Positions 36,927 through 56,626 of a stretch of DNA of 64,000 nt are shown here, one piece after another. Position 1 is the stretch's first letter; every line of letters begins with the position of its first letter. The DNA comes from a virus (Duplodnaviria; Caudoviricetes), in the IMG/VR virus record IMGVR_UViG_3300014204_000113, positions 32,001 through 96,000 of that record. One strand, given 5' to 3'. The notes beneath the pieces were generated by a model. The model was not told the DNA's origin. It did not search any database and saw nothing but the letters and a program-made list of their open reading frames with translations. A program made the translations under genes and the position numbers.

Positions 36927-36994
36927 GGTGAGGTAAGGTAAGGTTTGGTACGGTTAGGTTGGGTGGGGTAAGGTAGGGTGTGGTATGGTAAGGG
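36927..36994 (+). repeat. GGT-NN pentamer array A (13 units), candidate guide RNA
   Basis: NN = GA AA AA TT AC TA TG GG AA AG GT AT AA; invariant GGT. Confidence 0.9.
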
Positions 36995-38771: not shown

Positions 38772-41700
38772 ATGGCCTTTGTCCACCTCCACACCCATAC
38801 AGATCGCAGTTTGCTCGATGGTGCTGCTAAAATTTCAGACTACATTGTTGAAGTTGTTCGACACAATCAAAGTCATTTGGCGATAACAGACCATGGAAAT
38901 TGTGATTGCTTCCTTGAATTTCAGAAAGAGGCTTTGAAACAATCTATAACCCCAATCTTTGGTGTGGAATTCTACATCGTCCCAGACATCACTAAAAAAG
39001 AAAAATACGAAAAGAAATATCATATAACAGTTTTAGTTCAAAATAAGGTTGGGTTTACCAATGTCCTAAAAATGCTCACCATAGCCAATCTAGAAGGTCA
39101 TTATTATAGACCACAAATTGATCCATCTATATTGCTTAAAAATTATGAAGGTCTAGTTTTTATGACTGCTTGTGTGTCATCTTTTATTAATATGGAAGGA
39201 GGAATTGAATTATTATTAGAATTAAATAAAAAAGCACCAACCTATCTTGAATTGATGCCGCACAATTATCCCATCCAAAAAGAAATCAATTTAAAGAAAT
39301 TGGAATTGGGAAAGAAGTATAATATTCAATTTTCAGCAAGTAATGATGCGCACTACGCAAAACCAGAACATGCCCAAGCGCAGGAAATGTTGCTTGCCAT
39401 CCAGAAGAAGGCTAAATGGGATGACCCAAAAAGATGGAAGTTTGATTTTGGAGGTTTATATTTAAAGTCTGAACAAGAAATGGAACAAGCGTTTATAGAA
39501 CAAAATTGTGTTCCTAAAGAAATTTGGCGTCCAGCAATGGACAACACCATGGAAATCGCCAAACTATGCGAAAACTTCAAGATAAGAAAAAGAAAAGTTT
39601 CTTTGCCAAAAGTCTATGGATATGAGCACAGAGATGAAACAGAGTTGATGAGGGAAATTATTGAAAGCGGATTAAAAGAAAGAAAAATAGGAGATTACGA
39701 TACATATAGAAATAGAATAGAAGAAGAATTTGAAATAATTTGTAAATTGAATTTTCAAAGATACTTCCTTATAGTATGGGAATTGATAGATTGGTGTAAG
39801 AAGAATGGGATTGGTGTCGGTCCTTGTCGTGGGTCATCAGGCGGAAGTTTAATCTGTTATTTAATGCATATTACAGATATAGACCCAATAAAATATGGTC
39901 TTATCTTTGCTCGTTTTATTTCTATCGAACGCAACGATCTGCCAGATATTGATGTTGATTACGAAGATATAAAAAGAGAAGAAGTAAAAAAACATTTAAG
40001 AGATTGTTATGGAGAATACAATGTAGCAGGAATATCAACATTTTTAACATTAAAAGGGAGAGGGGCATTACGAGATGTAGCAAGGGTTTTTGATTTACCA
40101 TTAAGAGAAGTTGATTTAGTTGCAAAGGAGATAGAAACAAAATTAGACGGGGATAAACTTTGCGGACATACAATTGAAGAAGCATGTAAAAAATCTGAAA
40201 TTGTCGCTTCATTTAAAAAGAAATATCCAGAAACAGTTCAACTTGCAATAGATTTAGAAGGGCAGACGAAAGCTGTCGGCCAACATGCGGCTGGAGTAGT
40301 TGTTTCTTCTGATGATTTAAGGAAAGGGGAAAGATGTAATCTTTGTATTAGAAGTGGAGAAATTGTAGTTAATTGGGACAAAGAAAATGCAGAACAAATG
40401 GGGTTAATGAAACTTGATGTTCTTGGTTTAACTTCATTGACTATTATTAATTCTTCTAAGAAGTTTATTAAAGAGAATTATGATATTGATATAGAATTAG
40501 ATAAACTTACATTAGATGACAAAGAAATATATGAAGAAATTTCTAAAGGAAATAATGTAGGTTTATTTCAATTGAATTCACATGGTTTAACTGGCTTATG
40601 TAAAGAGATGGGAGTAAAAGAATTTAATGACATCGTTCTTGCAACTGCCATCTTTCGTCCAGGTGTGCTCGGAAGTGGAATGGCAGATGAATATATCAAA
40701 AGAAGGAAAAATAAAAAGGAAATAAAATATATTCATCCAAAGTTAAAAAAATATACAAAAGACACGCTTGGAATTGTTTTATATCAAGAACAAGTAATGT
40801 GGGTAATGTATGAACTTGCTGGCTTACCTTGGTCTATTTGTGATAAAGTAAGAAAAGTAATGGGTAAATCTCAAGGAGACGCAAAGTTTCAAAAATTTAA
40901 ACAACAATTTATTGATGGTTGTAAAAATAATAAGACGTTATCAGAAAAAGAAGCAGATAAAGTTTGGGATACATTAGCTTCATTCTCAAAATATGGATTC
41001 AACTTAAGTCACGCCACTGCTTATTCTATGATAACTTATTATTGTGCCTATCTCAAATATTACTACCCTAAAGAATTTCTCTGCGCTTGTTTAACTTATG
41101 GTGGCGAAGATAAGAAAGCAGAATATGTCAATGAAGCAAGAAGGTTGGGTTTGGAAGTAAGCCTACCAAAAATAGATAAATCACTTGCAGATGTTTGGTA
41201 TCCGAATAAAGACAGTAATATCATCTATGCGCCATTGACTGAAATAAAAGGTGTAGGGAAAACACAAGCAGAAAAGATAATTGAGCAAGGTTCAAATAAG
41301 AAAGTTGGTTTTTTCACTATCATGGATCAATCTGTTGTGCCTACCAATTCTACTGATGAATTATTGAATAAAGTAGGATTTTATAAGAAAACTTCTTTGA
41401 CACAAAAAGAGTTGATGAAAGCTAGACAATATCTTAATTTTAATCCATTGACTGGTATGAATAGATTTAGTAGATTACCAAAAGATTTTGATTATTCAGA
41501 CGATGATATTATTAAATGCAATTTGGAAGGATTTGAAGGTAATCTTATTGAAATAAAGAAATATGGAAAGAAGATAGAATGTGATAAATGCGAGTTGAGG
41601 AGAGAAGCAAAACAGATTGTTTTCCCATCTTTTGGACGCTATAATATAATGGCAATCGGGGAAGCACCCGGATCACGAGAAAATGAAGAAGGAATTGGGT

Positions 41701-42257
41701 TTGTAGGTGATGCAGGAAAAGATATTCTTTGGCCAGAATTGAAGAAGCATAATTTAGTTAGAGACATGTTTCACCTAAGCAACATCTGCAAATGCTTCCC
41801 TGGGAAGAAAATCAAAACGCCAACTAAAAATCATATAAAAATTTGTTCTGAACATATTATAGATGAAATTAATAATTTAAAACCAATAATGATTCTTGCT
41901 TTTGGTAATACTAATGTTAAATTTTTCAAAGAACAAGATGGTGGAATTACCGCTTTGAATGGAACTACTGAATGGTCAGATAAATTCCAATGTTGGATTT
42001 CATTTTGTGTGCATCCAGCATCATGTCTCTATCAACCATCAAATAAAGAACTATTTGAGAAAGGAATAAAGAATTTCGCAGATAAAATAAATATGATTGG
42101 TGGTAATTGGTTAAGGAAAAATAAAGAACAGAAATCCAACAGAAAATGTCCTTATGGTGGTAAATTTGGGATAGATAACAACGAGTATGAGGAATGTGAA
42201 GTATGTAATATTTGGCTTGATTGCACTAAAATTGCTATGAATGATGATTTTAAATGA
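38772..42257 (+). CDS. dnaE: DNA polymerase III alpha subunit with C-terminal family-4 uracil-DNA glycosylase domain
   Basis: PHP (HLHTH, TDHG), RGSSGGS, PDIDVD, KLDVLG, YQEQ, YGFNLSHA; then CxxC, GEAPG, N..KC.P, HP of UDG-4. Confidence 0.93.
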   Translation: MAFVHLHTHTDRSLLDGAAKISDYIVEVVRHNQSHLAITDHGNCDCFLEFQKEALKQSITPIFGVEFYIVPDITKKEKYEKKYHITVLVQNKVGFTNVLKMLTIANLEGHYYRPQIDPSILLKNYEGLVFMTACVSSFINMEGGIELLLELNKKAPTYLELMPHNYPIQKEINLKKLELGKKYNIQFSASNDAHYAKPEHAQAQEMLLAIQKKAKWDDPKRWKFDFGGLYLKSEQEMEQAFIEQNCVPKEIWRPAMDNTMEIAKLCENFKIRKRKVSLPKVYGYEHRDETELMREIIESGLKERKIGDYDTYRNRIEEEFEIICKLNFQRYFLIVWELIDWCKKNGIGVGPCRGSSGGSLICYLMHITDIDPIKYGLIFARFISIERNDLPDIDVDYEDIKREEVKKHLRDCYGEYNVAGISTFLTLKGRGALRDVARVFDLPLREVDLVAKEIETKLDGDKLCGHTIEEACKKSEIVASFKKKYPETVQLAIDLEGQTKAVGQHAAGVVVSSDDLRKGERCNLCIRSGEIVVNWDKENAEQMGLMKLDVLGLTSLTIINSSKKFIKENYDIDIELDKLTLDDKEIYEEISKGNNVGLFQLNSHGLTGLCKEMGVKEFNDIVLATAIFRPGVLGSGMADEYIKRRKNKKEIKYIHPKLKKYTKDTLGIVLYQEQVMWVMYELAGLPWSICDKVRKVMGKSQGDAKFQKFKQQFIDGCKNNKTLSEKEADKVWDTLASFSKYGFNLSHATAYSMITYYCAYLKYYYPKEFLCACLTYGGEDKKAEYVNEARRLGLEVSLPKIDKSLADVWYPNKDSNIIYAPLTEIKGVGKTQAEKIIEQGSNKKVGFFTIMDQSVVPTNSTDELLNKVGFYKKTSLTQKELMKARQYLNFNPLTGMNRFSRLPKDFDYSDDDIIKCNLEGFEGNLIEIKKYGKKIECDKCELRREAKQIVFPSFGRYNIMAIGEAPGSRENEEGIGFVGDAGKDILWPELKKHNLVRDMFHLSNICKCFPGKKIKTPTKNHIKICSEHIIDEINNLKPIMILAFGNTNVKFFKEQDGGITALNGTTEWSDKFQCWISFCVHPASCLYQPSNKELFEKGIKNFADKINMIGGNWLRKNKEQKSNRKCPYGGKFGIDNNEYEECEVCNIWLDCTKIAMNDDFK

Positions 42258-48329: not shown

Positions 48330-49349
48330 ATGAGTTTATCAGAAGAACAAAGAAAGAAATTGTATGATGACCACTCTATGGACGGAGCACACCAACAATC
48401 TTACAACAGCAGGGATGCAGGTGGTTTCAAAGGTATCTTTGACAGGGAAAAATGTCAGAAGTATGGAGTCAATTTTTGGAAGCCACAAGCGGGTGAACAT
48501 TTAATTGACATTCTTCCATATCTGTCTGGTGAAAATGCGCCTTATGTGGATGGGGTAAAAGCTAAACCCGACTCTCCAGCTTATGTAGTGGACATCTATG
48601 TGCATCAACGGGTCAATGTAAACAATGACCAGTATATTTGTCTTACCAAGTCATATCGCAAGCCTTGTCCTATTTGTGAAGCGATGGAAAAAGGCGATTA
48701 TTCCGCGGAAGAATTGGATGAAATGCGTCCTAAACGCAGAACCATTTACGCCATTATGGATTTGGACGCTACTTCTAAAGGAATTCAAATTTGGGAATTG
48801 GCTCACTGGTTCATGGAAAAGAAATTGCAGTATCGGGCCAAAAGACCTCGCGGCGGCGGATATGTAAACTACTCTCATGCCAAAAACGGAAAGTCAATTG
48901 CTTTTTCTATTACTGGAAGTGGGTTGAAAAAAGCGTTTGAAGGCCACGACTTCATTGATAGGGACGGACCCATTGACGAAGAAATTCTAGCTAAAGTTCC
49001 TTGCCTAGATGACTTGCTTCATATCCCGGAATATGATGAAGTCAAGAGAGCGTTTGAAAGTATGCAAGAAGAAGAACCGGAAGAAAGACAAGAAAGAGAA
49101 CCAGAACCAGAAAGAACAATGAAGTATGCGCCAGAACCAGAACATGAATATCCTGGTGATAAGAAAGAAGTAAAAGAAGCTGCAACAAATGAAAGCAATA
49201 AATGTCCAATTGGGGTGACATTTGGGGCGGACTTTGACCAATACGAAGATTGTGATGAGTGCATTGTCCGCATTGAATGTAAACGAGAAAAAGAAGGACC
49301 GCCTAAAGATAATGTAACACCGATGCCGCGGCGCAGAAAGAAAGAATAA
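48330..49349 (+). CDS. Single-stranded DNA-binding protein (T4 gp32-like)
   Basis: FWKP..G, ILP, VH..C..PCPICE zinc motif, acidic region. Confidence 0.75.
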   Translation: MSLSEEQRKKLYDDHSMDGAHQQSYNSRDAGGFKGIFDREKCQKYGVNFWKPQAGEHLIDILPYLSGENAPYVDGVKAKPDSPAYVVDIYVHQRVNVNNDQYICLTKSYRKPCPICEAMEKGDYSAEELDEMRPKRRTIYAIMDLDATSKGIQIWELAHWFMEKKLQYRAKRPRGGGYVNYSHAKNGKSIAFSITGSGLKKAFEGHDFIDRDGPIDEEILAKVPCLDDLLHIPEYDEVKRAFESMQEEEPEERQEREPEPERTMKYAPEPEHEYPGDKKEVKEAATNESNKCPIGVTFGADFDQYEDCDECIVRIECKREKEGPPKDNVTPMPRRRKKE

Positions 49350-49373
49350 AGAGAAACTTTTTCTACTGACCTA

Positions 49374-49402
49374 TTGACAAATTTTGGGAAAAATTCTACA
49401 AT
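49374..49402 (+). promoter_or_regulatory. Promoter upstream of recA and downstream array cassette
   Basis: TTGACA-17-TACAAT. Confidence 0.65.
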
Positions 49403-49494
49403 AAAGGTAGTCAAAATTTCCATTTCCCATCCTCCTAAACCCCTAACCCTGTCCCATCTGAAAATGGTGGGGCAGGAACTTTATGGAGTTTATA

Positions 49495-50586
49495 ATGCCA
49501 CCAAGAAAGAAAACAGATGATGTTGTAAATCAAATCAAAGAAGTTGCAAATAGTCCTGTGAGAAAAGATGATGAACGAGTTGAGTTTTTGAACAGTGGTT
49601 CAACTTTATTAAATTTAGCTGCTTCACAAAAAGGTAAAGATGGTGGATGGGCGCGAGGGAGAGTAATTAATTTGGTTGGTGATTCTAGTTCTGGGAAAAG
49701 CGCCCTTGCATTAGAAGTTTGTGCTCAAAGTCTTTACAATATTAAAAATATAGAATCTAAAATATATCCAAAACCTCAAAAGGTTTCAATAGTTTACAAC
49801 AATGTTGAAGGCGTAATGGATTTTCCAATTTCACAAATGTTCGGTGAGAAATTTAATAATGAAATCGAATGGATACAAACACCAACTTGTGAAGGTTTTG
49901 GTAAAGATTATCAACAAAGAGTCCGTAATTTAAAATCTGGAGAATTTCTTTTATATATTTTAGATTCAATTGATGCTTTAACAACAGAAGCTTCTTCAGA
50001 AAGAATGGATCAACTTTTAACCGATAAAAAAGTTGGTGGTTCTTATGGTTTAGAAAAACCAAAATTTTTTTCAAGTGAATTTTTCAATCATTTATGTGGA
50101 ATAATGAAAGGAAAAGATTCAACACTAGTTTGTATCAGTCAAGTTAGACAAAATATTGGCATAATGTTTGGGGAAAAACTTACAAGAACTGGTGGGAAAG
50201 CTCTAGATTTTTATGCACATCAAGTTTGTTGGTTGGCAACCATTGAAAAAATGAAGAAAACTTTTCGTAATCAAGATAGAATTTATGGAGTAAAAATAAG
50301 AGCACGTTTTAAAAAAAATAAAACAGCAATACCTTATAGAGAATGTGATTTTAGTATTATTTTCAATTTTGGAATTGATGATGTCAATTCAATGTTAGAT
50401 TTTTGTTTTGGTCCAAAAAGCAAGGAAATGACTTGGAATGACCAAGAAATGAAACGAGGAGATTTAGTAGAATTAATTGACAACTCAAAGGAGGATTATT
50501 TACTGCTACAAGAACTGACTGAAAAAATTTGGCATGAAATAGAGGAGGGAATAAAACCACGAAGAAAAAACAGGTTTATTGATTGA
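49495..50586 (+). CDS. recA: RecA/UvsX-like recombinase
   Basis: GDSSSGKS, LDSIDAL, ISQVRQNIG, TGGKALDFYA, KNK. Confidence 0.9.
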   Translation: MPPRKKTDDVVNQIKEVANSPVRKDDERVEFLNSGSTLLNLAASQKGKDGGWARGRVINLVGDSSSGKSALALEVCAQSLYNIKNIESKIYPKPQKVSIVYNNVEGVMDFPISQMFGEKFNNEIEWIQTPTCEGFGKDYQQRVRNLKSGEFLLYILDSIDALTTEASSERMDQLLTDKKVGGSYGLEKPKFFSSEFFNHLCGIMKGKDSTLVCISQVRQNIGIMFGEKLTRTGGKALDFYAHQVCWLATIEKMKKTFRNQDRIYGVKIRARFKKNKTAIPYRECDFSIIFNFGIDDVNSMLDFCFGPKSKEMTWNDQEMKRGDLVELIDNSKEDYLLLQELTEKIWHEIEEGIKPRRKNRFID

Positions 50587-50709
50587 GGTTAGGTTTGGTT
50601 AGGTGGGGTCCGGTAAGGTGAGGTAAGGTGAGGTGTGATGAGGTTGGGTAAGGTGGGGTGAGGTAAGGTATGGTAAGGTACGGTATGGTAGGCTAGGGTG
50701 AGGTATGGA
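50587..50709 (+). repeat. GGT-NN pentamer array B (24 units), candidate guide RNA
   Basis: Starts at the base after recA TGA; NN = TA TT TA GG CC AA GA AA GA GT GA TG AA GG GA AA AT AA AC AT AG AG GA AT. Confidence 0.92.
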
Positions 50710-50711
50710 TT

Positions 50712-51026
50712 TTGCGACTTAAATTTGAAAGTTGTTTTGAAACTCAATTTCGGGAAGAACTTGAAAGTCGTGGATTCATAAAGAATAAAGATTTCATACA
50801 AGAATTTCCAGTTCGGTATCCAACCCGAATAATCGACTTTGTATTTTATGACAAAAAGGTTGGTGTTGAATTGGATGGTCCACATCACATTGGTAAGAAA
50901 AAGTATGTTGACAAGTGGAAAGATGAAAAAGCAATAAAACAAGGATGGGTTATTGTAAGATTTGATTTGGAGCAAATGAAAGATATCAAGAATTGTGTTG
51001 ATATGGCTTTAAGTTTGATTAAATGA
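50712..51026 (+). CDS. DUF559/Vsr-like endonuclease
   Basis: QEFPV..IIDF..VELDGPHH..D..KD..GW.IVRF. Confidence 0.8.
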   Translation: MRLKFESCFETQFREELESRGFIKNKDFIQEFPVRYPTRIIDFVFYDKKVGVELDGPHHIGKKKYVDKWKDEKAIKQGWVIVRFDLEQMKDIKNCVDMALSLIK

Positions 51027-51033
51027 ATTTTAT

Positions 51034-51096
51034 GGTGCGGTTGGGTCTGGTGTGGTACGGTTTGGTCAGGTATGGTCAGGTAGGGTAAGGTATGGG
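51034..51096 (+). repeat. GGT-NN pentamer array C (12 units)
   Basis: NN = GC TG CT GT AC TT CA AT CA AG AA AT; ends GGGTTTTT. Confidence 0.9.
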
Positions 51097-51122
51097 TTTT
51101 TCTATACTCAAATTAAAACAAG

Positions 51123-51653
51123 ATGGAGAAACAAATCATGGAGTTGACAAGAATTAAAGTAACAGTTCATGGAACAAAACCTCTTTTGGTGCATCGTTTT
51201 GCGGAAGAAGAAAGCGGCAAATCCAGGAAGAAAGCAACTGAGGATTCAAAAACGCAGGCAGAAAAGGCTCTTTACACAAATGCAGATGGACCTTATGCAC
51301 CATCTTCTTGGTTTGAAGGAGCTATGGTTAAAGCCGGTGTAAATTTCTCGTTGCGCGGCAAGAAAACTTACAAAGATTTGGTTAAAAGTGCGGTTGTGGT
51401 GACACCAGAAGAAATTCCTCTACGCAACGAATGGGAAGTAGATTCTCGTCCTGTTGTGATTAGCGGCAGGATTATGCGCCATCGTCCTAAATTTAAAGAA
51501 TGGTCGGCAGAATTCACAGTTGAAATTACAGACCCGCAATTACCAGCAAATGTCTTGCAAGACATTTTGAAAGATGCAGGACAATATTGTGGCGTGGGTG
51601 ACTACAGACCCAAGTTTGGTACTTTTGAAATTGTTGAATTTAAAGAAATTTAA
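51123..51653 (+). CDS. Small RAMP/Cas7-like protein 1 associated with GGT-NN arrays
   Basis: IKVTVHGTKPLLVH (beta1), PSSWFEGAM, R.RP, C-terminal glycine loop GVGDYRPKFGTF; paralogue of 55107-55661. Confidence 0.7.
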   Translation: MEKQIMELTRIKVTVHGTKPLLVHRFAEEESGKSRKKATEDSKTQAEKALYTNADGPYAPSSWFEGAMVKAGVNFSLRGKKTYKDLVKSAVVVTPEEIPLRNEWEVDSRPVVISGRIMRHRPKFKEWSAEFTVEITDPQLPANVLQDILKDAGQYCGVGDYRPKFGTFEIVEFKEI

Positions 51654-51660
51654 TTGATAA

Positions 51661-51702
51661 TTTATGTAGCAATAAAATTTAATTATTCTATTGCTACATA
51701 AA
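51661..51702. terminator. Inverted repeat after RAMP-like gene 1
   Basis: TTTATGTAGCAATA...TATTGCTACATAAA. Confidence 0.6.
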
Positions 51703-51720
51703 AACAAGGTGGGCAGATTA

Positions 51721-51987
51721 ATGTACAAAATATACAAATACCCGTTTGAAATCAAAGATGAATTCATCATTGAGATGCCTTATGATTCAAAGATTCTCAA
51801 CGCCTTTTGCCAAAATGATATTCCTTGTATGTGGGCATTAGTTAATCCACAAAGAAAATTACAAAAACGTAAATTCACCATTATAGGTACAGGGCATCCA
51901 ATTGAAGAAACTTACAATTTAGAACATATTTCAACTTTTTCACAATCTGATGGCAAATTCATCTGGCACCTTTTTGAGATAGTCTAA
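51721..51987 (+). CDS. Conserved hypothetical phage protein
   Basis: IYKY, WALV, GTGH, FIWHLFE. Confidence 0.65.
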   Translation: MYKIYKYPFEIKDEFIIEMPYDSKILNAFCQNDIPCMWALVNPQRKLQKRKFTIIGTGHPIEETYNLEHISTFSQSDGKFIWHLFEIV

Positions 51988-52394
51988 TGCCAGAAGATGA
52001 CAACAAGAAATTTGAAACCATAGCGATTTCAGCGGATTTGATAGCTGAACAATTATTAATCGGTTTTGGAACTATGGATGTTGATGCAGCAAGCAGTTTG
52101 CAATTGGGAATGGTCAAGGCTTTGGCTGTGATGTGGGCAGCTTGTTCCAATGGTGATTCCAATGAAATATTTCATAAAATAATGGAAGCGATGCCGCCAT
52201 TAGCAAATTTAAAACAAGCAGGGTGGGTGCAATAATATGGATAAATTAAAAAAGATTTTTTCAGAAATTGAACCGAAAAAGATTCCTCCAATCCCAAAAC
52301 ACATAAGAAAAATATTGGATGATTATTCTGATATGGTGGACAACGCATTAAAGAAAGGTGAAGAATATAGAAAAAATTCAAAGGACAGATTCTA

Positions 52395-52934
52395 ATGGAT
52401 TACGAATATTATTTTTCGATGTGCGACAAAGTAGCGGAAAAAAGCAAATGTTTCAGTCGTAAAATTGGTGTTCTTGTAATGACACCAGACCTTAGTATTA
52501 TAAATACAGCGTATAATGGCCCAGCACGAAAAGTAAGTCATTGTGATAGTCAAGAACGATTACAATGGCTTGAAAAACAATTGAAAGATACCCATGTTGG
52601 AGCGGTAGATTTATATTTATTGGACAATGGCTATGGAACAAAGTGTCCTCGTCAAATATTAAAATTTAAAAGTGGAGAAGGATTACATCTATGTCAGGCT
52701 GCACATGCGGAAAGAAATGCAATTGCAAACTGCGCTAGAGAAGGAATAAAAACAAAAAATAACTGGATGTTGATGAATTGTAGCCTTCCTTGTCAAGAAT
52801 GTTCCAAAGGAATTATTGGTGCAGGTTTTTCAAAAATAATATGTGTTGAAGGTGATGATTATGACAAAGGAAGCCGGTGGATTTTAGATCAAGCTGGAAT
52901 TGAAATAGTTCAAATAAAAAGACAAAAAATATAA
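52395..52934 (+). CDS. dCMP deaminase
   Basis: SKC.SRKIG, YNGP, HAERNA, PCQEC. Confidence 0.9.
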   Translation: MDYEYYFSMCDKVAEKSKCFSRKIGVLVMTPDLSIINTAYNGPARKVSHCDSQERLQWLEKQLKDTHVGAVDLYLLDNGYGTKCPRQILKFKSGEGLHLCQAAHAERNAIANCAREGIKTKNNWMLMNCSLPCQECSKGIIGAGFSKIICVEGDDYDKGSRWILDQAGIEIVQIKRQKI

Positions 52935-53261
52935 AAAGAGAGGAATAAACAAATGAATTTTACGCCTGAAGAAATTAAAGAATTGGAAGAGGCGGTTGGT
53001 GTTTATCTTGAAATGGCCAAAGTTGTCAAACCAGTAGCAGAAGATATCGTTGATAGTATTTTGCAGTATGGACCTGTTTTAAGAAAATTGTTTGATGCCA
53101 TCATAGATTATCAAAACGAAAGAACCATTGCGACTATCAAACAATTTAAAGAAGCCGGTCTTGAACTTCACAACGATCAGATTCTTGCTTTGGTTCTTGG
53201 AAATAAAATGAGTTTTACTGACGTGTTGAAAAATATCAATTTTCAAAAATAAGGAGGAATA

Positions 53262-53690
53262 ATGAACATTTCCAAAGGCAGCAAATGGTATAAAATATTC
53301 ATGTGGTCATTGAGTATTTGTGAATCGTTTACTGGAAAACATTTATCATACAAATACCAAAATGGAACAAACCTTTGCCATATGATGCGAACCATATTTG
53401 TTTACATACCGTTGATCTTTTTGTCCCAGTTGTTGGTGTTGGGCGCGGCATTTTCGGTTTTAATTTACGTGCCGTTTAAATGGTTCGGAGCATTAACTTG
53501 GCTTGGTTTGATATTGGCAATAGTAGTTGGGTTTATTCTATTGTTTTCTCTTTTCATGGGTGGAGACAAACTTAAAAACAAGTTTGAAAGATGGTGTGAT
53601 GAAAAAGAACCAAGTCTTGTTTGGGAATGGATCAAAGCAAAGAAACATAAAATTTGTCCGTTGATCCAGTGGGAGAACAATCATGAGTAA
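53262..53690 (+). CDS. Membrane protein
   Basis: Two TM segments, C-terminal KAKKHKICP. Confidence 0.6.
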   Translation: MNISKGSKWYKIFMWSLSICESFTGKHLSYKYQNGTNLCHMMRTIFVYIPLIFLSQLLVLGAAFSVLIYVPFKWFGALTWLGLILAIVVGFILLFSLFMGGDKLKNKFERWCDEKEPSLVWEWIKAKKHKICPLIQWENNHE

Positions 53691-53996
53691 ATGGATAATG
53701 CCTCTTCCGGCTGTCGGAATCGCTCTCTTTGTAATCCCTTTTATCTTCGCGATTCAATTTGCTGTCCATCAAGATTATAAAATTTATGAAGGTCCGTGCT
53801 CATTTGTTGAATGGTCAACAGACAGTTTTAGATTGAAAATGAAGGTTAAATTTGACAATGGCAAAGAAGGAGAAACCTCTGACAAGAAAGCCTATCTACT
53901 TTTGGAAAAAGGTAAAACCATGATTGGTGAGTTGAAAATTTCTGGCGATGTTGATTTGAAAGAGCCTAAAGAAGAAAAGATTAAAGGATAATTAAT

Positions 53997-54437
53997 ATGC
54001 TACCAAGAAGCGGTTATCAACCAGAAGAAGAACTTGATTTGACGAATCCACCACAAGGTGATTCTGGTATTGATTGGCAAGAAATATTTTCCCAAACAGA
54101 AAAGAGGTCTCCTAAATTTTTTCAGATGTTGGTCAAGGCGGCTGACATCCACAATCGAAAAAACGCAAATTACGCAGGTTTGGGAAACGACCCGTTTGCC
54201 AATTTCAGAGAAGCGGAAAAATACGCTTGCCCTTCTTGCGGTGAAAAAATTCCAGCATGGCTCGGAGTAGCCATACGTATTTCGGACAAAACCAGTAGAA
54301 TCAACAACTTGCTTGGTGGTATTCCAGATATGGTTGGAGAAAGCCTTCTTGACACCTACACAGATTTAGGGGTTTATTCCAAAATTTTCTGCATTCTTTA
54401 CGAAGAATGGGAAGAGAAAAAGAAGAAAAAACTCTAA
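53997..54437 (+). CDS. DUF1599/Nmad-like (MazG-fold) protein
   Basis: RKNANYA..DPFANF, RISDK.SR, DT..DL..Y. Confidence 0.6.
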   Translation: MLPRSGYQPEEELDLTNPPQGDSGIDWQEIFSQTEKRSPKFFQMLVKAADIHNRKNANYAGLGNDPFANFREAEKYACPSCGEKIPAWLGVAIRISDKTSRINNLLGGIPDMVGESLLDTYTDLGVYSKIFCILYEEWEEKKKKKL

Positions 54438-54444
54438 AAATTTC

Positions 54445-54472
54445 TTGACAACCCGATTCTAAGGTTTATAAT
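54445..54472 (+). promoter_or_regulatory. sigma70-type promoter
   Basis: TTGACA-16-TATAAT. Confidence 0.65.
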
Positions 54473-54503
54473 AGAGGCAAATCTTTGAAGGAGGAACCTG
54501 AAA

Positions 54504-54758
54504 ATGAAAACCCTATTCCTGATTTTGCTTCTATGTCTGCTTGCAAGTCCCGCATGGCCCAGAGACCACAACAATTATGTAATCAGAGACAAGAATTATA
54601 CTGTCAAAAATTATGTCAAAGATGGAAAAATTTATGATAAGAATTACCGTCTTGAAGGTTACATAAGTCCTAATGGCACTATCAGAGATAGAAATTATAA
54701 AACTGAAGGTTATCTTGACAGGAATAGAAGTGGCGGTCGCAAAGGGCGAAACAAATGA
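54504..54758 (+). CDS. Small secreted protein with three I.DKNY...GY repeats
   Basis: Signal peptide; IRDKNYTVKNYV / IYDKNYRLEGYI / IRDRNYKTEGYL. Confidence 0.7.
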   Translation: MKTLFLILLLCLLASPAWPRDHNNYVIRDKNYTVKNYVKDGKIYDKNYRLEGYISPNGTIRDRNYKTEGYLDRNRSGGRKGRNK

Positions 54759-54928
54759 GAATTTCTGCTTACATTGTCATAATCGGTTTTGTCCTTGTAC
54801 TGGGTGGATGGATTTGGTTGGTGAATGATGTAGAATCCAAAAAACCAAGAGGTTTGAGTCCAAATCAGCAAGTAATGCTTGATAATGAAATATCAATCAA
54901 GAAAAAGATTTATGGTGATAGGAGATAA
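54755..54928 (+). CDS. Small membrane protein (57 aa, not in ORF track)
   Basis: MRISAYIVIIGFVLVLGGWIWLV...; ATGA overlap with upstream gene. Confidence 0.55.
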   Translation: MRISAYIVIIGFVLVLGGWIWLVNDVESKKPRGLSPNQQVMLDNEISIKKKIYGDRR

Positions 54929-54983
54929 ATTATGATTAATCTTTACATTACCAAATGCCATTAGAAGAGAATAAAAAGTTTAC

Positions 54984-55061
54984 AGCATGGTTAGGCGAGT
55001 CCGGGCGATGCTAGGTAGGGCATGGCCAGGCGGGTCTAGGTGTGGCAGGTTGTGGCGAGGA
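54984..55061 (+). repeat. GGY-NN pentamer array D (15 units)
   Basis: NN = AT TA GA CG GA TA AG AT CA GG TA GT AG GT GA; ends GGATTT. Confidence 0.88.
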
Positions 55062-55106
55062 TTTAAAAAACGAAAAATCTAACACAAATAAAAGGAGGAA
55101 CAACAA

Positions 55107-55661
55107 ATGAACTTGGTACTGTGTAAATACAAAATTACTGGCTTATTTCCACTTTTAACCCACAGTCCTGCTGGAATGAGGCAAGCGGCCAATGCGCCAA
55201 AAGTCAAGAAGATTCCATCGCCAGAAGATGAAGCACAAGCTGGTTTGTATATTGATAATGATGGAAATTATTGCATCCCGTCTATTGCTTTTCGTTCAGC
55301 TTTATTGAATGGATTGAAAGGGAAAAAGATTGGCAAGGTGGGTGCAATTTCAGTGTTTCAAGCTGCGGTTTTTAACGTGGACGAATTGAGTCCATTAGTT
55401 GACCCTGAAACTGGGCGAGCATTAAGGGAATATACGATCGACACTCGTAGAGCTATCGTGCAAAGACAAGGAATTTTAAGAAACCGTCCAAGATTTGAAA
55501 AATGGGGATGTAATGTTTTTCTTCAAATCGACTTGGAAATAACCACACCTGAGCAAGTAGAAGAAGCATTGAATACGGCTGGTCAAATCATTGGCGTGGG
55601 TGATTTCCGTATTGAAAAGAGAGGAATGTTCGGTAAGTTTCAAGCCGAATTGGTTGAATAA
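55107..55661 (+). CDS. Small RAMP/Cas7-like protein 2 associated with GGC-NN arrays
   Basis: KITGLFPLLTH, IPSIAFRSAL, RNRPRF, glycine loop GVGDFRIEKRGMFGKF. Confidence 0.7.
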   Translation: MNLVLCKYKITGLFPLLTHSPAGMRQAANAPKVKKIPSPEDEAQAGLYIDNDGNYCIPSIAFRSALLNGLKGKKIGKVGAISVFQAAVFNVDELSPLVDPETGRALREYTIDTRRAIVQRQGILRNRPRFEKWGCNVFLQIDLEITTPEQVEEALNTAGQIIGVGDFRIEKRGMFGKFQAELVE

Positions 55662-55679
55662 AAGATTTTAAAGATTTGT

Positions 55680-55749
55680 GGCAAGGCGAGGCTGGGCTAG
55701 GCGGGGCTAGGCGGGGCTAGGCGGGGCTAGGTATGTCAAGGCGAGGTTT
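55680..55749 (+). repeat. GGC-NN pentamer array E (13-14 units)
   Basis: NN = AA GA TG TA GG TA GG TA GG TA AT AA GA; internal (GGCTAGGCGG)x3. Confidence 0.88.
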
Positions 55750-55789
55750 GAAAAAGAAATTAAGAACAAGAAATATAATGATTTTTCGC

Positions 55790-55842
55790 GGCGGGGTGGG
55801 GCGATGCCCGGCCCGGCATGGTAAGGCAAGTTAAGGCGAGGG
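55790..55842 (+). repeat. GGY-NN pentamer array F (10 units)
   Basis: NN = GG GG GA CC CC AT AA AA AA GA; ends GGGTTTT. Confidence 0.85.
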
Positions 55843-55870
55843 TTTTCAAACAAAACAAAGGAGAATAAAT

Positions 55871-56548
55871 ATGCTAATCAAAGCAGCAGAATTGATTGAG
55901 GATTTCAGTTTATATCCACGTTCCCAAGTGGACACAACACATGTAAGAAATATTGCAGAAGCAATGATGGCAGGAGAAAAATTTCCGTCTATCATCATTG
56001 ATGAACAAAATAGGATTATTGATGGCTTCCATCGGAAAAGAGCTACATTGAGGGTTTTTGGAGATGAGGCTGATATTGAAGTAGAAGTTCGACAATATGT
56101 TAACGATAAAGAAAGATTTCTTGATGCTTTGAGATATAATTCAAGACACGGTAAGGGAATAACTGGAGTTGAACAGACAGGAGCTATTTTGAAGGCTCAA
56201 GGTTTCAAGATTGACCCTAAATTTATCGCTTCTGCTTTGGGAATCAGCCAAGAAAGAGTCAAAGAAATCGTGCAATGTAAAGTCGGGAACATTCGCCAAG
56301 GTACGACTGCTCATGGAGACCCAGTTCCTCTAAAACGCTCTATGCAGCATTTTGCTGGGAAAGAAATGACTGTTGAGCAAGTTAAGGTGAATGATATGGC
56401 TCCCGGCACGCCACAATCTCTTCTTATCAATCAACTTATCGGATTTATTGAAAGCGGTAGTTTACAACTGGAAAATGAAAAGATTGTTAATGGACTCATC
56501 CATTTGAAGGAACTTTTAAATGGATTGGTTTTGGAAAAAGCGGTTTGA
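55871..56548 (+). CDS. ParB/Srx-like domain protein
   Basis: YPR, FP.I.ID, IIDGFHR, N.RHG. Confidence 0.8.
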   Translation: MLIKAAELIEDFSLYPRSQVDTTHVRNIAEAMMAGEKFPSIIIDEQNRIIDGFHRKRATLRVFGDEADIEVEVRQYVNDKERFLDALRYNSRHGKGITGVEQTGAILKAQGFKIDPKFIASALGISQERVKEIVQCKVGNIRQGTTAHGDPVPLKRSMQHFAGKEMTVEQVKVNDMAPGTPQSLLINQLIGFIESGSLQLENEKIVNGLIHLKELLNGLVLEKAV

Positions 56549-56563
56549 AATAATTAAAGATTT

Positions 56564-56626
56564 GGCTCGGCTTGGTTGGGCGCGGCTAGGCTATGCGCGG
56601 CTTTGCGTGGCAGGGCAAGGCGTGGA
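56564..56626 (+). repeat. GGC-NN pentamer array G (12 units)
   Basis: NN = TC TT TG GC TA TA GC TT GT AG AA GT; ends GGATTT. Confidence 0.88.

Follow-up and report, generated by a model that had tools for sequence, protein, structure and literature searches.

VIPR systems (Viral Interference Programmable Repeat; bioRxiv 10.64898/2026.04.26.720920) consist of Vipr, an ancestral RAMP protein, of vrRNAs made of 9-16 GGY/NN repeats (Y, pyrimidine; N, any base) followed by a 3′ tail, and usually of an accessory gene, vap; the NN dinucleotides pair with the DNA target, one target base being skipped (10.64898/2026.04.26.720920). In the structure solved for SUSP1, one protomer is bound per repeat, with G1 of the fixed triplet held by H17 and D177, G2 held by R138 and W178, and the third base, Y3, lodged in a pocket made of E71/M72, C173 and R179 from which purines are excluded (10.64898/2026.04.26.720927). 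Seven VIPR types, non-canonical triplets, solo vrRNAs, guides directed at relatives and self-matches lying below the non-self match have all been published already. Here we describe a new member of this system class, located in a stretch of 64,000 nucleotides (hereafter the window) that corresponds to bases 32001-96000 of the complete 187,988-bp IMG/VR virus record IMGVR_UViG_3300014204_000113 (Duplodnaviria; Caudoviricetes), which has direct terminal repeats. We consider it very likely that two of the three VIPR systems carried by a complete 188-kb phage lie in this region, and that one of its pentamer arrays, array B, would silence the recA gene of a rival phage during co-infection, the phage's own allele being immune.

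Seven GGY-NN pentamer arrays (A to G, Table 1) are found in the window, all of them on the + strand and none on the − strand, and their strict 5-nt register is preserved through the variant triplets GAT, GCT, GTC, TGC and GTT. The same seven arrays, with the same positions, register, sense orientation and unit counts, had been reported in a preliminary description made from the letters of this DNA, and the GG(A/G)TTT end that it ascribed to most of them is present in its strict form in five of the seven (B, C, D, F and G), array E ending in GGTTTG and array A in GGG plus a hairpin. Beyond the tract, the five carry GGRUUU (R, purine) and array A a simple hairpin, and no longer common tail is seen; each triplet class has its own invariant final units, two to four in number (GGTAT-GGR and GGCGA-GGR). 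Over the whole genome 12 GGY-NN arrays are found, as against 0 in 20 Markov-1 shuffles, and a thirteenth, of the TGT-NN type, appears when any fixed triplet is allowed; six of the 13 are located outside the window. These six further arrays, the GGT/GGC class split and a third vipr paralogue had been missed by the preliminary description. Most arrays occupy the entire intergenic space, they are scattered over ~100 kb, their strand bias follows transcription, and two of them (24 and 20 units) are longer than the published range of 9-16 units. Array A is remote from every vipr gene, and array D lies immediately 5′ of vipr-2. Array E shows an internal 10-nt repetition (GGCTAGGCGG, ~3.5 times, window 55685-55731); its code reads (TA-x-GG-x)n, and a sequence matching it would have a 6-nt period, as in a Tyr-Gly repeat or a repetitive DNA element. 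Note also that one 5′ leader, TTGATTAAATGAATTTT, is common to arrays C and I (window 51017-51033; genome C1:116327-116343) and another, TTAAAGATTT, to arrays E and G (window 55670-55679 and 56554-56563); these leaders could be class-specific promoter or processing signals.

The arrays are accompanied by two paralogous proteins of 176 and 184 amino acids (aa), Vipr-1 and Vipr-2 (30% identity, E 4e-19), the latter belonging to a distinct clade; both carry the motifs G..PL..H, P...F..A and GVGD(Y/F)R...FG.F that the preliminary description had quoted. Its assignment of these proteins to the RAMP/Cas7-like group is borne out at two levels. At the level of sequence, both match PDB chain 36pp_D, 'SUSP1 Vipr protein' (Vipr-1, E 1.9e-14; Vipr-2, E 6.1e-6), the PDB containing no other credible match for either, and both match phrog_4652 (Vipr-1, E 8e-26). 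The nearest published relative of Vipr-1 is SUSP1 (type II), at 30% identity, but Vipr-1 comes without vap1; closer relatives of Vipr-1 exist at 74% identity, and Vipr-2 has 70 metagenomic homologues. At the level of structure, the AlphaFold model of Vipr-2 (predicted local distance difference test, pLDDT, 89.5; predicted template modelling score, pTM, 0.84) has a RAMP-type fold, its closest structural neighbours being the Csm3/Cas7 subunits of type III-A and type VII effectors (probability 1.00, E ~5e-6). In SUSP1 numbering, none of the three paralogues and none of 112 other Viprs departs from R138, D177 or R179, and all of them have an aromatic residue at position 178, W178 of SUSP1 being replaced by Y or F here. 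H17 is found in Vipr-1 and Vipr-2, and Vipr-3 has N at this position. In the Y pocket, Vipr-2 has Ala72 and Ile173, unlike SUSP1, and Vipr-1 has Cys173 together with Trp72, where its clade has His.

For comparison, 159 homologue loci were taken from the viral collection, starting from the two protein alignments. Of 160 vipr genes, 138 have a GGY array of 6 or more units on the same strand at a distance of no more than 2.5 kb, so the possibility raised in the preliminary description that homologues elsewhere lack such arrays is not upheld, and several of the apparent exceptions bear T- or A-first (e.g. TGT-type) arrays instead. In 62% of 322 dereplicated arrays the tract is followed, in register, by GGR (GGA or GGG), where chance gives ~3%, and SUSP1 vrRNAs likewise show an in-register GGR after the tract; a purine at position 3 thus looks like a general end-of-tract signal, and would fit the purine-excluding Y pocket as the end of the filament. 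All the defining features of VIPR that we tested are present, save a vap for Vipr-1 and a SUSP1-type tail, of which only the in-register GGR at the end of the tract is evident. Membership of class 1 CRISPR-Cas fails: the only tandem repeats here are multiples of the period of 5 (Tandem Repeats Finder, used as an independent check, returns periods of 5, 10, 15, 20 and 25), and neither a Cas1 nor a Cas2 family match occurs in the complete genome, positive controls included, which extends to the whole phage the earlier statement that cas1/cas2 are lacking. The locus is a member of VIPR, a name that the preliminary description had given and that is borne by preprints describing the same mechanism; the novelty which it implied does not stand, the system class having been published in 2026.

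Targets were searched with the published rule in which NN is read and 1 nt is skipped (NN-x), the published targeting threshold being an NN match of 80%. Under this code, array B spells the 3′ portion of recA as it occurs in a related phage lineage, in codon phase and with the wobble base skipped. Units 1-12 (24 specified bases) have exactly two matches in the viral collection, both of them in recA homologues, and the foreign match extends to 38/40 NN over units 1-20, with mismatches at the four class-constant 3′ units (21-24). The foreign sites are in the sense orientation and in codon phase 1, and they precede the stop codon by ~180 nt, which is also where the site in the phage's own copy lies. 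The rival recA product (371 aa) shares 63% identity with the RecA of this phage, and the rival contigs are 66-74% identical to the phage over several core genes; neither vipr nor arrays are present in the 14-18 kb of them that are available. Array B itself starts at the base directly after the stop codon of the phage's own recA, whose segment 50401-50459 matches the array at 25/36 NN, again in codon phase 1 (local match p = 0.019). The mismatches of this own copy are spread along the site and affect about one third of the read positions, so that it falls below the published 80% threshold.

A comparable arrangement is seen at array D, which finds its best partial match in the whole genome within the upstream gene, in phase: segment 54633-54673 of the phage's own gene for a small protein of the beta-flower family reaches 18/28 NN in codon phase 1. 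Alleles of the beta-flower protein differ from each other inside the segment covered by array D, and one natural allele spells, at the protein level, the first seven guide codons of D and would allow up to 20/22 NN on units 1-11, compared with 16/22 for the own copy; the target of array D is presumed to be such a foreign allele. Genome-wide, the best partial match of arrays D, H, J and L lies at most 1 kb from the array (0.01-0.06 expected for each), and the upstream gene gives arrays A, B, D and H a sense-strand alignment within its 3′ part, in codon phase 1. A test with local shuffles yielded p <= 0.0005 for H, J and L and 0.036 for D, which with B brings the arrays with a significant partial match in an adjacent gene to five of 13; A (p = 0.09), C, E, F, G, I and K were not significant. 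For H, J and L, which lie outside the window, the best gapped partial match is 69-70% NN at a distance of no more than ~300 bp, with the guide beside the own allele as at B. We also considered such adjacency as a general rule of VIPR and rejected it, since among 260 arrays from ~160 other loci 4.6% reach p <= 0.05, which is the null rate, and the layout of a guide beside the own allele is absent from all 260; adjacency is thus peculiar to the arrays of this phage.

A mechanism can be proposed from homology with SUSP1, for which it has been demonstrated in earlier work. The pentamer arrays would be transcribed into vrRNAs, along which Vipr protomers would polymerise, one per GGY, each pair of protomers burying the fixed triplet and exposing NN; the filament would then bind double-stranded DNA matching NN-x-NN-x and block transcription there. 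The preliminary description had likewise proposed one subunit per GGY with NN presented for pairing, an arrangement that appears sound in the light of the VIPR preprints and of the array B target, which obeys the code. In co-infection, array B would silence the recombinase gene of a rival lineage and array D may silence a rival's small secreted protein, own alleles being presumably immune by differing at the read (non-wobble) positions. Placing the guide beside the immune allele would keep both linked.

The fixed triplets of the arrays are divided between the paralogues. The four arrays D-G, packed into no more than 1.7 kb around vipr-2, contain 33 GGC and 8 GGT, whereas the other eight GGY arrays contain 123 GGT and 3 GGC (Fisher p = 7e-24 for the two classes), and each paralogue is adjoined by its own triplet: GGU for Vipr-1, GGC for Vipr-2 and UGU for Vipr-3, the last in a TGT-NN array directly 5′ of vipr-3. 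Across ~140 loci, His17 accompanies G-first arrays in 90 cases and non-G arrays in 16, as compared with 15 and 17 for Asn17, with which nearly all strongly non-G arrays are found. T- or A-first arrays in these loci occur almost all with Asn or Ala at position 17. It is plausible that the VIPR subsystems are kept apart by their fixed triplet (orthogonality), GGU arrays presumably serving Vipr-1 and GGC arrays Vipr-2. The fuller proposal, in which three mutually orthogonal subsystems would be told apart by GGU, GGC and UGU through pocket positions 72/173 for the third base and His17 or Asn17 for the first, and in which the guides would also act as linked poison-antidote cassettes, each beside a resistant own allele of the core gene (recA and others) silenced in co-infecting relatives, is one that we put forward only tentatively and with more doubt than confidence.

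The reading in which array B is a guide against a rival's recA has to be weighed against two others that concern the nature and the direction of the arrays. They might be non-coding DNA features, G-rich repeats serving packaging, replication or recombination, with the RAMP-like proteins binding something else; here the arrays are known from DNA alone, they show neither a promoter nor a terminator signal, and no Rfam family corresponds to them. The proteins, however, are homologous to a Vipr solved in complex with a vrRNA, the arrays keep their triplets fixed and their NN variable, their strand bias follows transcription, and they co-occur with vipr over ~160 loci. The decoding of array B into a real gene under the published code effectively refutes such non-coding roles, which we hold to be extremely improbable. 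Alternatively, the arrays could control neighbouring genes of the phage itself, with the partial matches as the real targets of a weak and tunable self-repression, and the five of 13 arrays with a significant match next door would agree with this. Self-regulation is nevertheless very unlikely in our judgement, since B fits the foreign recA far better than the own copy (38/40 against 25/36), the own-copy mismatches are distributed along the site, and published natural targets are matched at 80% or more, self-hits above that level being absent both there and here. It was rejected on the basis of a genome-wide self-target search with shuffled controls, in which skip rules 0-3 gave nothing at 80% or above, the best self-matches being <=75% and within the shuffled controls. 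A number of observations weigh against the guide reading itself. The phage is uncultured and known from sequence alone, and the rival contigs are fragments of 14-18 kb, so that co-infection is assumed. The long conserved pseudoknot tail of SUSP1 is not apparent, the arrays ending in GGRUUU or a plain hairpin; neither sigma-70 promoters nor terminators are enriched around the arrays; and a recognisable conserved vap for Vipr-1 is lacking. Array D found no DNA-level target in exact gapped-pattern scans, and exact-match scans of viral, metagenome and genome collections gave none for C, E and G, array F having been left out of target scans for its too few informative units; exact gapped-pattern matching is unforgiving, so these empty scans are weak negative evidence. 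Finally, the associations between residues and triplets are not independent of phylogeny, and GC content partly confounds them, the C fraction of arrays rising with GC across loci (Spearman rho 0.50).

This last dependence also bears on how the triplet split is to be explained, since the split may simply record history, the Vipr-2 cassette having come from a higher-GC phage and any Vipr being able to load any GGY array. In agreement with this, the nearest relatives of Vipr-2 (69-78% identity) sit in contigs of 51-60% GC with GGC-rich arrays, in a comparison where the window has 33.5% GC and the phage genome ~34%, and according to the published structure the Y pocket merely excludes purines. 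Against it, the genes of the cassette are ameliorated: GC content at third codon positions (GC3) is 0.33 for vipr-2 and 0.30 for vap, with 0.32 for vipr-1 and 0.27 +/- 0.08 as the genome-wide mean, yet the arrays are still 80% C; with vipr-2 and vap within one standard deviation of the genome, GGC is not simply imported composition. Degenerate units of the GGC class tend to retain C (TGC, GTC). Inside a matched GC band (0.45-0.62), the C fraction of arrays tracks pocket position 72, being 0.38 with His and 0.87 with Ala or Gly (p = 4e-5), and the pairing of Vipr-3 (His17 to Asn) with a UGU array, together with Asn17 tracking non-G arrays, amounts to triplet-protein co-variation in the family. 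We regard a purely historical origin of the split as a serious possibility, albeit one that we would not favour.

Among the neighbouring genes (Table 1), vap belongs to the Vipr-2 clade, in which the order array, vipr, array(s), vap, array recurs, and vap is syntenic with vipr in 30 loci of that clade. Vap has a ParB/Srx N-domain, an invariant DGxHR motif and a helix-turn-helix (HTH) domain; it matches the ParB-like phrog_1033 (E 1.7e-12), and the folds most similar to its model (pLDDT 92.7) are those of Noc, ParB and KorB (E ~2e-5). The main text of the founding VIPR preprint does not mention 'ParB'. The ParB-like Vap probably strengthens DNA binding or silencing by Vipr-2. Between arrays B and C, and separated from either by a spacer of 5-7 nt, lies a DUF559 gene (Vsr-like endonuclease fold), which is a syntenic vipr neighbour in 0 of 160 loci and is probably an unrelated or mobile insert in the array cluster. 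A conserved vap for Vipr-1 was sought among its neighbours and rejected, since DUF559, DUF7352 and the neighbours of Vipr-3 are without syntenic homologues in other loci. We would also point out a small open reading frame (ORF) with an HNH motif that occurs just 3′ of vipr in the Vipr-1-clade loci L091, L096, L099, L102 and L104 and is absent from Vipr-1 of this phage; it is probably the vap of those loci. The beta-flower gene is preceded by a perfect sigma-70 consensus promoter (TTGACA, 16 nt, TATAAT; window 54445-54472), which is the sole 12/12 match in the region. A known RNA family between the arrays, hammerhead included, was considered and rejected, no Rfam match being found in the region.

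Table 1. Positions of the arrays, vipr genes and other features; window coordinates are used unless a genome (C1) position is given
Feature	Position	Strand	Description
Array A	36927-36991	+	13 units, GGT class, then GGG + hairpin
Array B	tract 50587-50706, to 50712 with GGATTT end	+	24 units, GGT class
Array C	tract 51034-51093, to 51099 with GGGTTT end	+	12 units, GGT class, immediately 5′ of vipr-1
Array D	tract 54989-55058, to 55064 with GGATTT end	+	14 units (4 degenerate), GGC class
Array E	55680-55749	+	14 units, GGC class, end GGTTTG
Array F	tract 55790-55839, to 55845 with GGGTTT end	+	10 units, GGC class
Array G	tract 56564-56623, to 56629 with GGATTT end	+	12 units, GGC class, directly 3′ of vap
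TGT-NN array	genome C1:126439-126518	+	16 units, directly 5′ of vipr-3 (locus L002)
Array H, adjacency entry	genome C1:112598-112656		outside window
Array J, adjacency entry	genome C1:116737-116783	−	outside window
Array L, adjacency entry	genome C1:167463-167515	−	outside window
vipr-1	51123-51653	+	176 aa, Vipr (ancestral RAMP) protein
vipr-2	55107-55661	+	184 aa, Vipr protein, distinct clade
vipr-3	genome C1:126575-127141		outside window, 41% identity to Vipr-1
vap	55871-56548	+	225 aa, ParB/Noc/KorB fold, Vipr-2-clade accessory gene
DUF559 gene	50712-51026	+	Vsr-like endonuclease fold, E 4.5e-8, between arrays B and C
recA/UvsX-like recombinase gene	49483-50586	+	Pfam RecA, E 1e-26
Beta-flower gene	54504-54758	+	small signal-peptide protein, family PF21785
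Five tRNAs	8773, 28334, 46356, 57566, 57664

The phage also encodes a DnaE-type DNA polymerase III alpha subunit, a gp32-like single-stranded DNA-binding protein and RecA (window 38772-42257 and 48330-50586). GenBank contains no close relative of it by DNA, a RecA search of the viral collection gave no sister phage, and neither its RecA nor its DnaE-type polymerase exceeds 35% identity to those of cultured phages; on these grounds it represents an uncharacterised large-phage lineage.

Several aspects of this locus may be of wider interest. Paralogue-specific triplets in one genome, with candidate specificity residues, are not found in the text of the founding or competition VIPR preprints; nor does the text of either contain recA as a VIPR target, or a guide abutting the phage's own mismatched allele (.720920 and.759431). 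Several Viprs with different triplets in one genome are a setting in which orthogonality of guides and proteins would evolve, and the candidate specificity residues could be useful toward multiplexed VIPR tools. The recA gene of a related phage as a target widens the known use of VIPR to competition between sister phages. Guides placed beside a mismatched own allele suggest selfish linkage, and may bear on how new vrRNAs arise or spread; if this is true, the guide and its immune allele would pass to progeny as a unit and could also spread as one by recombination, in a manner reminiscent of the marker exclusion of homing endonucleases.

The closest described system is the type II VIPR of Escherichia phage SUSP1 (10.64898/2026.04.26.720920,.720927; PDB 36pp). 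Both have homologous Viprs with the same residues contacting GGY, same-strand GGY-NN vrRNA genes that flank vipr, tracts ending in GGR, often after GGTAT, and a 1-nt-skip code in which the skipped base falls at the codon wobble; both are phage-borne, without cas1/cas2 and without a self-target of 80% or above, and are directed at a competing mobile element. Differently from SUSP1, with which the proteins share 24-30% identity, the phage described here has three paralogues instead of one, no vap1 homologue and no apparent conserved pseudoknot tail, and its arrays are dispersed over ~100 kb and reach 24 units, compared with the published 9-16. Its fixed triplets are split by paralogue (GGU, GGC and UGU), its computed target, recA, belongs to the essential core genes of a sister-type phage, whereas in SUSP1 the target is a satellite recombinase or a prophage regulator, and its guide abuts the phage's own mismatched allele. 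Solo vrRNAs, which are carried by satellites or by phages that lack vipr and are directed against vipr, vrRNAs or satellites (10.64898/2026.10.15.759431), resemble the guides described here in being located away from vipr, in being aimed at related phages and in having a self-match below the non-self match; unlike them, the present phage has its own Viprs, and its guides lie beside the homologous self-allele of the target. The UGU-NN array at Vipr-3 and the T- and A-first arrays of homologue loci are like the WGT/NN and TGH/NN patterns of the report on non-canonical motifs (10.64898/2026.10.21.760802). That report lists motifs per cluster, whereas here both kinds share one genome, each beside its own paralogue, and, beyond what it describes, the first base co-varies here with residue 17, the G1 contact of the SUSP1 structure.

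More distant likenesses concern the two protein families. With Cas7/Csm3 of type III-A and type VII, the Viprs share the RRM (RNA recognition motif)/RAMP fold, the glycine-rich loop, the thumb and a guide-RNA polymer with fixed periodicity; unlike class 1 CRISPR systems, the locus has no repeat-spacer array and no cas genes, sequence identity is 10-17%, and the period is 5 nt with two bases read, as compared with 6 nt and five. Vap, like the ParB/Noc/KorB clamps that bind DNA in a cytidine triphosphate (CTP)-dependent manner, combines a ParB/Srx N-domain with an HTH domain, but its alignments (~140 of 225 residues matched) are without the C-terminal dimerisation region, DGxHR stands in place of the GERRxR CTP-binding box, and neither a ParA partner nor parS is evident. 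Within VIPR, the partition into three triplets and the position of guides beside the phage's own allele are variant features on a known system class.

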